64,000 nt of DNA from positions 1 through 64,000 of IMG/VR virus record IMGVR_UViG_2526164662_000021; one strand, written 5' to 3'. The translations under genes were made by a program, and so were the position numbers. Below the pieces are notes generated by a model. That model had not been told where the DNA came from. It saw nothing but the letters and a program-made list of their open reading frames with translations, and searched no databases. The DNA is from a virus (lineage: Duplodnaviria; Heunggongvirae; Uroviricota; Caudoviricetes). This document shows, piece by piece, positions 2,577 through 61,754 of the stretch (the first letter of the stretch is position 1; each line of letters starts with the position of its first letter).

Positions 2577-2764
2577 TAAATATATTATTTTTAATGATAA
2601 ATGATTGACAACTGACAAGTGACTTCAGTCAGAATCATCACACGCCCGGTACGGATGGATCCCTTTTCAAATATTCCATGGACGGCACAGTCTGAGTACC
2701 GGGCGCTACCTTCAGTTGTATTGCTAAGCCGCCGCTGGTGGCTTTTCTTTTTTGTAGGGGCGCT

Positions 2765-3571: not shown

Positions 3572-3597
3572 TGAGTCCTTTGAAAACAAAGGACTCA
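3572..3597 (+). promoter_or_regulatory. Perfect 11-bp stem hairpin covering the likely RBS of the GNAT gene
   Basis: TGAGTCCTTTG-aaaa-CAAAGGACTCA, ends 8 nt before the ATG at 3605. Confidence 0.5.
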
Positions 3598-11782: not shown

Positions 11783-11849
11783 TGGTAATCCTTAACAAGT
11801 GACTAGTGTTAAATTTCCGTTCAAACACGATGCGAATTATTCTAATTAA

Positions 11850-14580
<2,731 letters not shown>

Positions 14581-15429: not shown

Positions 15430-15562
15430 AAAGACCTCATAAGCGAATTTTTTACGCTCCAGGACAAACACCCATTCACAGCCAATACCGACTGACTCGA
15501 TCCCTTTAGAAGGCACAGGATAATGCAAATCACTTGTTAGCTACGTTTCAAAGATATACATT

Positions 15563-21770: not shown

Positions 21771-22136
21771 TTATGCTGCCTCTTTAATGTTGGCGGCTAT
21801 CCATGCCGCCGTGTGCTGTTTAACCTGGTCCAGGTCGATGTATGTGCCAACATATTGACTCAAATCCTGCAAGGTACCGATAAATGCATCGGTGCTCTGA
21901 TCGACGAATTTATCAGCCAGGAAATCAGCAACCAGTTTTGGCACACCATCATGTTCCGAAGGTTGTTTTTCCTCGCCACTACCACCGCCGGACGCGCCGT
22001 ACCCCATCTGTTGCATGATCTGGTCAATTTCATCGCTGATATCCAGCAACTCCATACCACTCGCGGTAGCCGCTTTGGACATCAGAGCATCCAACTTATC
22101 GCTGAGATCCATTAACTCAATAGCTGATAGTGTCAT
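21771..22136 (-). CDS. ddrA: DdrA-like protein
   Basis: 121-aa ORF between darA and ddrB; synteny. Confidence 0.55.
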   Translation of the reverse strand: MTLSAIELMDLSDKLDALMSKAATASGMELLDISDEIDQIMQQMGYGASGGGSGEEKQPSEHDGVPKLVADFLADKFVDQSTDAFIGTLQDLSQYVGTYIDLDQVKQHTAAWIAANIKEAA

Positions 22137-24052
22137 GCCGCTACCCCCGCTTTCTGGATTGCTACCAACAGATCAGCCAGGTGGCGAGCTGCGCCGTTAA
22201 CCAGCTCTTCGTTTTCCTCAAAACGTCCGGCAGCCTGAAGGGGTGCAATCGCTTCCCGGACATTGCCCCGGGCGTTACGGATCTCCGCCATGTCAGTGCT
22301 TTGCATATCCATCACGTTATTGAGATATTCAATGGCTTTATTAGCCTCTGCATCTGCTTCGCTAACCGTTTCATCAGGCTGTGCCGGGGCCGGTTCTGGC
22401 TGAGTAATCTCACCGACTTCGGCCTGCAATGCATTGATCATGCTCTGCACCATTTTCTCGGTGCCAGCGCCCCCAGGAAACGCAATATTGGGGAAAGTTT
22501 TTTGAAACTGAGTTTTCAGCATTACGCGGAACTCGTCTGGTGAGCTGGTGGCCAGCTCCAGAGCTTTTTGTGCATATTTGCCAAACGGACCATTAGTAAG
22601 TGTCTTCGCCAGGAAATCGAAAGAATCCTCGCGAGGCAATAACTTCAGGTCGTACTCACTCATTTGCTGATCAGAAAGCGGGGTATCGTAAGTAGCAATG
22701 CCGTAGCGTGCATATTCATAATACGGGTCACCTTCATCAGGGCGCGGCAGAATTGCTTTGTTACCTTCAGGTATTGCGCCAGGGGCCGCCGGACGCATTT
22801 GCAGGGCATATCGATATGCACCTACAGAGACTTCTGGTTCAGGCGAAGAGCTACCGGTATCCTCCGCTGGTTCAGGTTCGACGTTTTCCGGTTTATGTTC
22901 TTCTGGTTGGACCAGGTATTCCGATACATTACCCGCTTTATAGGCTTTAAACAGCTTGCCGATCGCATCTGCCATGTCCACACCCTGTATGGATTTAGCC
23001 TTGATCATGTATACGCTGCCATCCGGATCGGTTAACTGGATATACCCTTCGCCGTCCCCAATGAATTGCTTCATTGATGCACCATTACTGAGCGTCGCTT
23101 CCCCGTCCATATGCATACGATTTTTGATACTGGCAAGGCGATCCGTCAGCGCGCGAGAGTGCCCACCAGTCATCCCCGCAGGGGCAATGGTATCGCGCCC
23201 ACCAGTGCGATTGAGCCGATCAATCTCCCCCTGCAAACGCTCATTCTCTTCATAAAGAGAATCCGCTTCCGATGCAACAGCGTTAATTTTCTGCTCCAGA
23301 TCTGCCTTCTGCCCTTCTACCGCTGCCACCTGATCCGCGAGGTCGCTCATGGCGTCCTCTTTCTGGTCACTGTCAGCCTGTAGTTGGGTTATTTCATCAA
23401 CAAGGGCTTTTTTCTTCTTCTGCGCACGCTGGAATTTTGCCGAGTTTTTCTCTGCAAGGTTGGCAAGTTTCATGGTGACCTGCGCCAGCGTCATATCACG
23501 TCCACTCATCGGAGCAACGGTGTGAGTAACGTCTTTTTTATTCAGTAAGAACTGGAAAGCAACCAGCGTATCGCTATTGGTGATCCGGTTTTCCGCTGTC
23601 GGGCTATGAAACAGAATGCTGATAGTCTGACCATCACTGAGCGGAATAATGGCTGGCAGGACCGGCAGCCCGTTAACGTTACGTGCCCGGCCAATTTCAG
23701 CACCGCCGATCGCGCGCGCGCCGCTCTGGGCCACCTCCCCCGTTTTATCACTCCCCGCAGAGATTCCGGTACCATTCAGCTTCTGGTTCAATGCCCGGAC
23801 AAATGCCTGCATGGTCCGGTGTAACTGCAAACGAGTAGAACTAATCGCCTCCAGTAAATCCGTAGCACACCAGTGGATCGGCGTGTCATAGAAGAACGTA
23901 GCCTCGATTTCCTCCAGGGTGTTGGATTCCGTCATCAGATAGCGGTCCTCACCGGCCATTAATGCGCGATATTCATCATCAGTCACTGGCGGGGGAAGCA
24001 CGTCAAGCCCAGGCTTGATCGTCACCCCTTTATTGATATTGAACTGTTCCAT
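22133..24052 (-). CDS. darA: DarA anti-restriction head protein precursor
   Basis: 639-aa ORF with coiled-coil middle region; position and size match P1 darA. Confidence 0.7.
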   Translation of the reverse strand: MEQFNINKGVTIKPGLDVLPPPVTDDEYRALMAGEDRYLMTESNTLEEIEATFFYDTPIHWCATDLLEAISSTRLQLHRTMQAFVRALNQKLNGTGISAGSDKTGEVAQSGARAIGGAEIGRARNVNGLPVLPAIIPLSDGQTISILFHSPTAENRITNSDTLVAFQFLLNKKDVTHTVAPMSGRDMTLAQVTMKLANLAEKNSAKFQRAQKKKKALVDEITQLQADSDQKEDAMSDLADQVAAVEGQKADLEQKINAVASEADSLYEENERLQGEIDRLNRTGGRDTIAPAGMTGGHSRALTDRLASIKNRMHMDGEATLSNGASMKQFIGDGEGYIQLTDPDGSVYMIKAKSIQGVDMADAIGKLFKAYKAGNVSEYLVQPEEHKPENVEPEPAEDTGSSSPEPEVSVGAYRYALQMRPAAPGAIPEGNKAILPRPDEGDPYYEYARYGIATYDTPLSDQQMSEYDLKLLPREDSFDFLAKTLTNGPFGKYAQKALELATSSPDEFRVMLKTQFQKTFPNIAFPGGAGTEKMVQSMINALQAEVGEITQPEPAPAQPDETVSEADAEANKAIEYLNNVMDMQSTDMAEIRNARGNVREAIAPLQAAGRFEENEELVNGAARHLADLLVAIQKAGVAA

Positions 24053-25086: not shown

Positions 25087-25412
25087 TTCCCGCCTCCCTT
25101 TTTCACCAAACTTGTAAGAACATTCAGAATGCTATCGATATTCACTCGTTTCATCCCTGAAATCACCTCATGACCGTTATTGCTGGCTATCGTTACCATT
25201 AAGTACGTAATTGATAACTCCCAGCCCTCGTGTTGCCCCAATAGGTACGCCACCGCGCCAGCTGTCACTGCAACAAAGATCTCCGTAACCAATCCCAACA
25301 AATTGCCAGACTGGCGACCGTCTCGGACATCCATCAGGAACGTGCCTATCCCACCAATTACTGAAAGCAGGAGCGCAATAGCAACTGGAGCTAATTCCTG
25401 TGTGTCAAGCAC
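25083..25412 (-). CDS. lydA: LydA-like holin
   Basis: 109 aa with hydrophobic transmembrane-like segments and a charged C-terminus; synteny. Confidence 0.6.
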   Translation of the reverse strand: MLDTQELAPVAIALLLSVIGGIGTFLMDVRDGRQSGNLLGLVTEIFVAVTAGAVAYLLGQHEGWELSITYLMVTIASNNGHEVISGMKRVNIDSILNVLTSLVKKGGGK

Positions 25413-25479
25413 AAGTTCCCTCCTACGTTGTCAGGAGGTAATGGTATGCAAAGTAACTTCTCAACCGGTCATTTGTTGC

Positions 25480-41979: not shown

Positions 41980-42109
41980 TTAACCGATTCTACGAGTAGT
42001 CATTTGTTCATTGAGTAGGAATATTGTTGTCTGGGGGGTAATCAGTGTAGGTGGAATGAGGGATATGATATGGTTATCACATAATCAGGTTGTTTTGAGT
42101 AAAACAATA

Positions 42110-43535: not shown

Positions 43536-43689
43536 GTATTTTTAAGTCACGAATGCTATCTTTTCGCATCATATTGACCTTTTAATCGTTCAGGCTTATA
43601 GTTCCGCCGTCGTAGCAAATTCTGCGACCGGGTTTAGCAGCCTGAATGATTGTGCGGACAGCCGCAGATATCCGATATTGCGGTATTTT

Positions 43690-43795
43690 TGTGTCCGTAA
43701 AACCGCGTTACGCCCAAATTATGGTGGGGCGTGATGGGGAGGCTTCGGCCTGCTGGTTTCACAATCGCCAGTCTGCTAACCCCGTCACGTCCTGC
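43690..43795 (+). ncRNA. c4: Candidate c4 antisense immunity RNA region
   Basis: Lies between the operator and icd; contains CCTGCTGG and CTGCTAA, complementary to GTAGCAGG and TTAGCAG at 43800-43819 just upstream of the icd RBS; exact ends not determined. Confidence 0.4.
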
Positions 43796-43849
43796 CACCT
43801 GTTTAGCAGCGGGTAGCAGGTTGTTAAACCTGATTGTGAGGCCGTAACT

Positions 43850-55004: not shown

Positions 55005-55139
55005 TTTACTCTTCCTTAAACACAAGGCACTTGTGTGAATCCCTTTTCGGAAGAGATTTTATTGAAAGTCACTTGTTGACTTTCTCGTGACAAGCAATTT
55101 TTTTATTTTTTTCGGGAGTAGGGGAGGAAGGTAAAATCC

Positions 55140-60337: not shown

Positions 60338-60670
60338 TTAGTTACCGCTGATAGCGCGGTTGTAATCATTAACGTTGCGATTCTTCCTGTTAATCCCCAT
60401 CAGCATCGTTTCTGTATCAAGGATATAGGCTGGCAGATCATCAAAATATTCACTGCTAAACTCTGGCATCCTGCACATAAATGCACTTTTGGGGGCAGGG
60501 TGATTAACCTTTGTCGGCGTCGGCGTTAAATTCGCTGATCGACTCCCGGAGCAACCGCTGAGTGTCAACAGGAATGCGCTGGCGAACACTACCCGACGCA
60601 ACCAGTTGTTTCTGAACTTCAGCTTTTCGTTCCATTTGTCTGTCTGCATACTTCGCTTGTTCTGATTCAT
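60338..60670 (-). CDS. Lipoprotein (o-spanin-like; P1 mlp position)
   Basis: Signal peptide with lipobox LTLSGC; overlaps the 3' half of the upstream gene in another frame; start uncertain. Confidence 0.4.
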   Translation of the reverse strand: MNQNKRSMQTDKWNEKLKFRNNWLRRVVFASAFLLTLSGCSGSRSANLTPTPTKVNHPAPKSAFMCRMPEFSSEYFDDLPAYILDTETMLMGINRKNRNVNDYNRAISGN

Positions 60671-60926
60671 TTTTCACTTCCTGGCTGTGAAAATGTTGAT
60701 CCGCTTTATTCATCGTCTCAATGGTCTGGTTAAGATCAATGATTGACTTATCGCGCTCCTTAACAGCCTGATCAAGGCTGCCAATTTTTTCCAAGGCTTG
60801 CTTTAACTGATAACGTTCCCATGCAAACCCAGCACCAACAAGTGCGCAAATCAGGACAAGAACACCAGTAACAGCAAGTTTCTCCTTCAAAGACAAAGCT
60901 GTTTTTAACGTTGAAAAAAACGACAT
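60504..60926 (-). CDS. Type II membrane protein with coiled-coil (i-spanin-like)
   Basis: N-terminal TM helix LAVTGVLVLICALVGAGFAW then charged helical region. Confidence 0.45.
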   Translation of the reverse strand: MSFFSTLKTALSLKEKLAVTGVLVLICALVGAGFAWERYQLKQALEKIGSLDQAVKERDKSIIDLNQTIETMNKADQHFHSQEVKNESEQAKYADRQMERKAEVQKQLVASGSVRQRIPVDTQRLLRESISEFNADADKG

Positions 60927-60965
60927 TTCTTCCTCCTGAAGAAAAATTATCTGTGAAGTCCTTTG

Positions 60966-61754
60966 TTAAAGTGTCGCCTTGTTTAATTCATCAAGAACAG
61001 AATCAGGAACCAAAGCTGCGACTGCGCTGGCGGTGCTGGCCTTATTTGCTGATGCTTCCGCCAGCGCGGTTCCGATAGCATGGTTATAAGCAGTTATGGC
61101 TACGCTGGCGCTTTCCTTCGCTCGTTCATACTGCTGTTGCAATGCTGCTACCGGTACTGTTGTCTGGTCGAAAAAAGCACCAAATTGTTCAGTAGCTTCC
61201 TTCAGTGCTTCAACTTGTTGTTCTGTCAGTGCTGGTGGGGGAGTGACTGCGCCGCCACCTGAATCAGAGCCTGACGAGCTTCCTGAGCCTGTGTTAAGGG
61301 TCTGGTTAACGTCCCCCATAGCAGCGACTAAACTCGACGCATTAAGCGCATTTACAGCGTCCTCAAGCGATTTCGTTGTAGTCGCGTCACCAATGGCAAT
61401 AGAGATCGGCAGTTCTGAAACTTCTCGCTCATTAGCACGACAGTAAACATCCCAACCAATATCGAGTTGAAGGAGCATTGACAGATCAGCATAACCAGCC
61501 AACAGGTCCGCGTGCTGAGTTGCCAGCCCTCCAATATTCGTTAAACCGGTTGCGGTTGTTCTGATCGTTGAAACATAGCTGGTAATAGTGTCGGGATAGA
61601 CAATTGTATCCAGAATTAATCCGGTCAATTCTTCTGCAAGCAGTTTTGCTGTGTTAGCACTGTTTCGTGCCGATGTTATGGCACCAGGTGTTTTCATCCC
61701 ACCGGCGGCGGCCAATTTTTTATATGCGGATAACTGGTAGACTTTTTCCAGCAT
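60966..61754 (-). CDS. Hypothetical protein (P1 upfB position)
   Basis: 262 aa from ATG at 61754 with AGGAGA RBS; Ser/Gly-rich linker. Confidence 0.45.
   Translation of the reverse strand: MLEKVYQLSAYKKLAAAGGMKTPGAITSARNSANTAKLLAEELTGLILDTIVYPDTITSYVSTIRTTATGLTNIGGLATQHADLLAGYADLSMLLQLDIGWDVYCRANEREVSELPISIAIGDATTTKSLEDAVNALNASSLVAAMGDVNQTLNTGSGSSSGSDSGGGAVTPPPALTEQQVEALKEATEQFGAFFDQTTVPVAALQQQYERAKESASVAITAYNHAIGTALAEASANKASTASAVAALVPDSVLDELNKATL

Follow-up and report, generated by a model that had tools for sequence, protein, structure and literature searches.

A 10-mer repeated in a P1-like plasmid prophage very probably marks the known Lpa-dependent late promoters

The 10-mer ACAAGTGACT, which recurs in the 64,000-nucleotide stretch of viral DNA analysed here (the window), is very probably the core element of the late promoters that depend on Lpa in phage P1 and its relatives. 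The initial annotation had suggested that P1 late promoters use the 10-mer, as a conserved upstream element, in place of a -35 box, and this identification was supported by the P1 and P7 annotation and by the literature. In the P1 records AF234172 and AF234173 and in the P7 record AF503408, the position orthologous to 11797-11815 bears the label 'late promoter LPpro', and a '-22 region' AAGTGACTA and the -10 hexamer TAAATT are marked in it; the two other exact copies of the 10-mer are annotated in P1 as LPmat and LP23. Nothing in the sequence contradicts the reading as Lpa-dependent late promoters. The element is already known: it is textbook knowledge for P1, descriptions of the late promoter and of its activator Lpa, which works together with SspA of the host, go back to the early 1990s, and the reference genome carries the annotation. 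Inspection of the raw sequence recovered a genuine regulatory code, which is biologically nothing new. For the annotation of this P1-like plasmid prophage, it fixes the starts of seven late transcription units.

Three parts of the window were searched by megablast, and P1 (AF234172, AF234173 and NC_005856) and P7 were matched with about 98% identity, together with numerous P1-like plasmid prophages from E. coli and Salmonella. By these matches the window is a P1-like plasmid prophage. It is collinear with P1 between about coordinate 62 and coordinate 67016 and covers the part from cre to dmt, and lpa, pacA, the remaining late operons and four other P1 late promoters lie outside it. A tblastn search for lpa gave no match in the window (E values of at least 0.94), because the window stops at P1 coordinate 67016. 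From its relatives, we infer that lpa is present in this particular element; the gene adjoins pacA in both of the fully sequenced relatives that were examined, P1 and the Cronobacter phage JK004.

Three exact copies of ACAAGTGACT were found, at 2615-2624 (+), 11795-11804 (+) and 55067-55076 (-), in agreement with the coordinates first reported for them. The reported distances to the downstream genes were also about right, with 54 nt between the end of the 10-mer and the TTG start of prt at 11859, and 60 nt between the end of the 10-mer and the TTG start of gene 23 at 55006, which was placed by orthology to P1. The copies had further been described as lying 6-8 bp upstream of a -10-like hexamer at two of the three sites. 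The hexamer is indeed present, but at all three sites and with a gap of exactly 5 bp at each of them: the prt site reads ACAAGTGACT-AGTGT-TAAATT, the gene 23 site ACAAGTGACT-TTCAA-TAAAAT and the mat site ACAAGTGACT-TCAGT-CAGAAT. The hexamers of the prt and gene 23 sites are of the TANNNT type, and that of the mat site deviates at position 1. Three copies in 64 kb had been judged far above chance, which is correct only if the word is chosen beforehand. As a pre-specified word, ACAAGTGACT had a mean of 0.16 copies in dinucleotide shuffles, and none of 100 shuffles reached three copies. For 10-mers generally the claim fails, as 505 of them (strand-collapsed) occur at least three times in the window, compared with about 243 in Markov-1 random sequence. 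It is the position, the orientation and the fixed spacing to the -10 hexamer, rather than the copy number, that make the 10-mer significant.

The late promoters annotated in P1 number 11 (LPmat, LPpro, LPlyz, LPdar, LPs, LPsit, LP23, LP26, LPpmgL, LPhot and LPpac), and their alignment gave the consensus AACAAGTGACTT-N4-TAnAAT. Within it, a 9-base box, AAGTNACTT, forms a 4+1+4 palindrome and is followed by a 4-bp spacer and the -10 hexamer. The 10-mer corresponds to this box moved 2 bp upstream, which adds the conserved AC, and lacks its final T. The functional unit is the 9-bp palindrome AAGTNACTT, with the extended consensus AACAAGTGACTT, rather than the 10-mer as it was delimited. Seven of the 11 promoters map onto the window, each with 0-1 mismatch per 40 nt or with one indel (Table 1). 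The spacer between box and hexamer is 4 bp at all seven sites, and, judging from the orthologous features annotated in P1, each of the seven lies between genes and is directed at the adjacent late gene. The genes downstream are mat, prt-pro, lyz, lydA-darA, R-S-U, pmgC-sit and gene 23. By this orthology, LPpro is the promoter predicted to drive prt (portal) and pro, and LP23 the one predicted to drive gene 23 (major capsid protein).

Table 1. Late promoters mapped in the window, the candidate site upstream of ppfA, and the prt reading frame
Feature	Position	Strand	Box	Spacer	-10 hexamer	Context and basis
LPmat	2617..2635	+	AAGTGACTT (2617-2625)	CAGT	CAGAAT (2630-2635)	40-mer identical to P1; annotation
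LPpro	11797..11815	+	AAGTGACTA (11797-11805)	GTGT	TAAATT (11810-11815)	P1/P7 annotation
LPlyz	15517..15535	-	AAGTGATTT		TATCCT	Upstream of lyz (lysozyme); 1 mismatch per 40 nt to P1
LPdar	25441..25459	-	AAGTTACTT		TACCAT	Upstream of lydA-lydB-hdf-darA; 40-mer identical to P1
LPs (classical Ps)	33697..33715	-	AAGTTACTT		TACAAT	Upstream of tail-fibre genes R-S-U; 1 mismatch per 40 nt
LPsit	41987..42005	-	AAATGACTA		TAGAAT	Upstream of pmgC-tub-pmgB-sit tail operon; 40-mer identical
LP23	55056..55074	-	AAGTGACTT (55074-55066)	TCAA	TAAAAT (55061-55056)	40-mer identical to P1
Candidate late promoter	60946..60964	-	AAAGGACTT	CACA	GATAAT	Unannotated as late promoter in P1
prt ORF (putative portal protein)	11859..13568	+				TTG start, first gene past LPpro; ORF list, P1 annotation

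The boxes of LPmat, LP23 and LPpro in the window are identical to the '-22 regions' annotated in P1. When tested for the palindrome, LPmat and LP23 were perfect (AAGTGACTT), and the LPpro box AAGTGACTA matched at three of four half-site positions. The AAGTNACTT box centred at -22, the 4-bp spacer, the type of -10 hexamer and the downstream genes are all shared between the window and P1. The differences are a one-base insertion of T just after the -10 hexamer of LPpro and single substitutions beside LPlyz and LPs; otherwise there is essentially none.

Relaxed searches raised the number of elements in the window from the three first noticed to seven in total, three exact and four with 1-2 changes. 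With up to one mismatch, ACAAGTGACT was found at 11 places (2.85 expected), six of which are annotated P1 late promoters. The composite motif ACAAGTGACT-N5-TANNNT with up to two mismatches was found at nine places (1.4 expected), including the seven late promoters known from the P1 annotation. A genome-wide matrix search, proposed in the initial annotation as a check, pointed the same way. A PWM built from the three exact sites was scanned over about 128,000 positions on both strands; the training sites ranked first, LPs, LPsit and LPlyz ranked 4th, 5th and 6th, and LPdar ranked 14th. LPpro had the top score both with this matrix and with a matrix built from ten P1 late promoters. The scores of LPs, LPsit and LPlyz (17.8-19.2) are above the mean random maximum of 14.6 (sd 2.0) and below the largest random value of 21.0, and it is the recovery of independently annotated promoters, rather than the score values, that is informative.

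The other five copies with one mismatch, at 31129 (-), 33627 (+), 37203 (-), 55025 (-) and 58309 (-), were rejected as promoters, as they have no -10 hexamer at the right spacing. They are not among the matches to the composite motif, and none of them scored above 8 with the ten-promoter PWM; with the three-site PWM, the copy at 55025 ranked 15th, with a score of 11.8 that is within noise. The composite matches at 3586 (+) and 25129 (-), with two mismatches each, were also rejected, being at the level expected by chance. The latter site, 25129-25149 (-), reads ACGAGTGAAT-ATCGA-TAGCAT and lies within the 3'-terminal part of lydA, ahead of lydB. It is about 40 nt upstream of a RBS and an ATG, which by P1 coordinates is that of lydB. 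Although chance-level statistically, the site sits where an internal promoter serving the antiholin gene would be expected.

The motif is also conserved in a diverged relative. Cronobacter phage JK004 has about 72% DNA identity in the prt region, and its genome contains 10 matches to the composite motif (about 0.9 expected); by gene positions and sizes, some of them precede the JK004 orthologues of R, gene 23, gene 26, pacA, prt and lyz. Upstream of gene 23, the window and JK004 share 22 consecutive identical columns over GTCAACAAGTGACTTTCAATAA, which comprise the box, the spacer and most of the -10 hexamer. Upstream of prt, the box, spacer and -10 hexamer are kept save for one T-to-C change, and the flanks diverge. 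No other block of the prt and gene 23 upstream regions is as well conserved as the motif in these pairwise alignments. The Lpa orthologue of JK004, encoded next to pacA, has 67% amino-acid identity over 126 residues, and P1 Lpa matches the Pfam family PF25716, 'Late promoter-activating protein'. Among 78 P1-like contigs of IMG/VR, the box of LPmat is nearly invariant; the variation is at the first spacer base (C/G), at the central base of the palindrome (G/T) and in the flanks.

The presence, spacing, orientation, orthology and conservation of the elements come from the present analysis, and their dependence on Lpa and SspA and their start sites are taken from the literature. According to the established mechanism, host sigma-70 RNA polymerase would read the -10 hexamer with no usable -35 element, and the phage early protein Lpa (gp10), at the -22 box, would replace the -35 contact together with SspA, a host protein associated with RNA polymerase. 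In the P1 annotation, lpa is under the control of C1 via the operator Olpa. The late promoters would be silent in the plasmid prophage because lpa itself is repressed by C1, and they would fire only after derepression, when the head, tail, lysis and packaging operons would be switched on. Lehnherr et al. in 1991 and 1992 and Hansen et al. in 2003 reportedly found that mutations in the box or the -10 hexamer of Ps abolish activity, and that sigma-70 holoenzyme, Lpa and SspA are all required for activation in vitro. In the accepted model, Lpa contacts the -22 box directly. The site that Lpa binds is a conserved sequence whose centre is at -22, and SspA of the host is needed as co-activator (PMC3152322). 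In PMC1891329, which cites Hansen et al. 2003, Lpa is a DNA-binding protein with sequence specificity that is thought to act via RNA-polymerase-bound SspA, and SspA itself does not bind late-promoter DNA. Late transcription requires both proteins (PMC10695390, PMC1891329, PMC3152322), and the LP23 promoter, there named PL23, has been used on a plasmid as an Lpa-dependent reporter of the lytic state (PMC8546580). The sources differ on the main nature of Lpa, which is a DNA-binding protein in one (PMC1891329) and an RNA-polymerase-binding factor in another (PMC8198154).

Three other explanations of the repeated word were weighed. That a functionless short word happened to occur three times in 64 kb has a negligible probability. 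The copy number by itself is unremarkable and would allow it, but all three copies are intergenic and directed at the gene that follows, each with a gap of exactly 5 bp to a -10-like hexamer, the four near-copies share this geometry, the motif is kept in JK004 despite diverged flanks, and curated annotations place promoters at these same sites. Chance recurrence is effectively refuted by this regularity of position and orientation together with the conservation across species. The palindrome could instead be the operator of another regulator, a repressor or a host factor, rather than the target of the late activator, and a 4+1+4 palindrome over the core promoter is typical of the geometry of operators for dimeric repressors. 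This explanation is extremely improbable. The annotated C1 operators are separate from the boxes: Op(pro), in the P7 record, is about 70 bp upstream of LPpro and inside darB, and Omat is about 33 bp upstream of LPmat. Moreover, the box occurs only at late operons, an Lpa orthologue co-occurs with it in the diverged JK004, and the secondary literature assigns the site to Lpa (PMC10695390, PMC3152322).

The sites might also be sigma-70 promoters with a weak or non-canonical -35 element that need no activator and have the box in common through shared ancestry or duplication of a cassette, which we consider very unlikely. In its favour, the P1 annotation predicts sigma-70 promoters near LP23 and near the candidate site upstream of ppfA, and LPmat overlaps another, Pmat, whose perfect -35 element TTGACA (2605-2610) is 19 bp upstream of the -10 hexamer of LPmat. 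LPmat is thus a partial exception to the missing -35 element. At the two other exact copies the evidence is against it: a consensus promoter scan found no acceptable -35 element to pair with the hexamer of LPpro or LP23, and no sigma-70-type promoter was called at LP23. The reported requirement of late transcription for Lpa and SspA (PMC10695390, PMC1891329, PMC3152322) also argues against it, and the use of LP23 as an Lpa-dependent reporter already points in that direction (PMC8546580). Duplicated promoter cassettes were rejected because the sequence outside the box and the -10 hexamer is unrelated among the promoters. Activator-independent transcription is unlikely for LPpro and LP23, which lack a -35 element, and possible as an additional mode at LPmat, which may not depend strictly on Lpa because it overlaps a predicted sigma-70 promoter with TTGACA.

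As Lpa-dependent late promoters, the sites resemble those of other phages in some respects. The late promoters of P2 and P4 likewise have a poor or absent -35 element and are activated by Ogr/Delta with the host sigma-70 polymerase, and the Ogr site is near -55, further upstream than the P1 box. The late promoters of Mu, activated by protein C, also combine a poor or absent -35 element with a phage activator and the host sigma-70 polymerase (PMC3152322). However, the C site of Mu is at -30 to -55 (PMC3152322), whereas the P1 box is at -22, between the would-be -35 element and the -10 hexamer. The Mu C and Ogr/Delta proteins are unrelated to P1 Lpa, and P1 additionally needs host SspA. In the MglA-SspA/PigR system of Francisella, a polymerase-bound protein of the SspA family contacts a DNA-bound activator, and P1 Lpa/SspA was cited as the precedent (PMC1891329). 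That system differs in being a bacterial chromosomal regulon with another activator and another DNA site, and not a phage late switch.

It is conceivable, though rather doubtful, that the annotation of the late regulon is incomplete, with a twelfth Lpa-type promoter at ppfA-mlp and a read-through leader behind LPmat. The candidate promoter was the best non-annotated match in the PWM searches, with scores of 15.0 and 15.5 that are at noise level. The full site, 60946-60969 (-), is TTAACAAAGGACTTCACAGATAAT, with the arrangement AACAAAGGACTT-CACA-GATAAT. Its box, AAAGGACTT, is degenerate, and 19 nt separate the end of its -10 hexamer from the ppfA start codon, the ATG at 60926. P1 annotates only a predicted sigma-70 promoter here, P1ppfA, which shares the -10 hexamer of the candidate. 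At the same place upstream of ppfA, JK004 has GACAAATGACCT-GGCG-GAAAAT, and the Salmonella plasmid pCFSAN001636, whose PpfA is 59% identical, has GACATATGACTT-GTCA-GAAAAT. The box and the -10 hexamer are conserved among the three, and the spacer is different in all of them. Membership of the candidate in the set of late promoters is uncertain. The ppfA ORF (60504-60926, -) and the mlp ORF (60338-60670, -) overlap; PpfA has an N-terminal hydrophobic segment, Mlp has a lipobox, and the P7 RefSeq record lists an 'Rz-like spanin' product in this region. The two genes look like a putative spanin pair, consisting of a membrane-anchored protein and an overlapping lipoprotein, and a late promoter would make sense for such genes.

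Between LPmat and the ATG at 2766 there is a leader of about 125 nt (2642-2765, +). It was predicted to fold with an MFE of -39.4 kcal/mol (z -2.4) into a long hairpin and a terminator-like hairpin at 2726-2744, which is followed by a T-run to 2754; an 8-bp long-range stem is formed by CCCGGTAC and GTACCGGG. Transcripts from LPmat or Pmat may have to pass this conserved leader hairpin and the intrinsic terminator before they reach mat. If so, mat would be controlled by attenuation or antitermination, or LPmat would give rise to a short late RNA. The mat start annotated in P1 is an ATG that corresponds to position 2655 of the window. The G-run at 2757-2760 is GGGG in the window and GGGGG in P1, a difference that frameshifts the 5' extension of mat annotated in P1. 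Four Gs were found in 47 and five Gs in 31 of the P1-like contigs of IMG/VR; with both lengths this frequent, the reading frame ahead of the G-run is not conserved. The true start of mat is hence probably the ATG at 2766, and the P1 reference start is likely mis-annotated. If confirmed, the ppfA/mlp promoter and the leader and start of mat could refine the transcription map of P1.

A search of the whole window against Rfam at the gathering thresholds gave no match at any of the promoters or within the leader of mat. The only matches in the window were the C4 antisense RNA and its a1/b1 target, at 43596-43648 and 43717-43802 (+), as expected for the immI region of P1.

The 5' leader of gene 23 contains a perfect 7-bp hairpin at 55020-55036 (-), ACACAAG-TGC-CTTGTGT, just upstream of the gene 23 RBS. 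One arm of the hairpin is the one-mismatch copy of the 10-mer at 55025-55034, which has no -10 hexamer at the right spacing, and the hairpin is not conserved in JK004. This element probably forms a stem-loop in the leader rather than acting as a second promoter.

In JK004, three extra composite motifs, at 39411-39431 (-) of L006 and at 22127-22147 (-) and 36283-36303 (+) of L007, have no counterpart among the 11 annotated late promoters of P1. One of them is directed at ssb, opposite to LPlyz. These extra motifs suggest that the late regulon varies somewhat between P1-like lineages.
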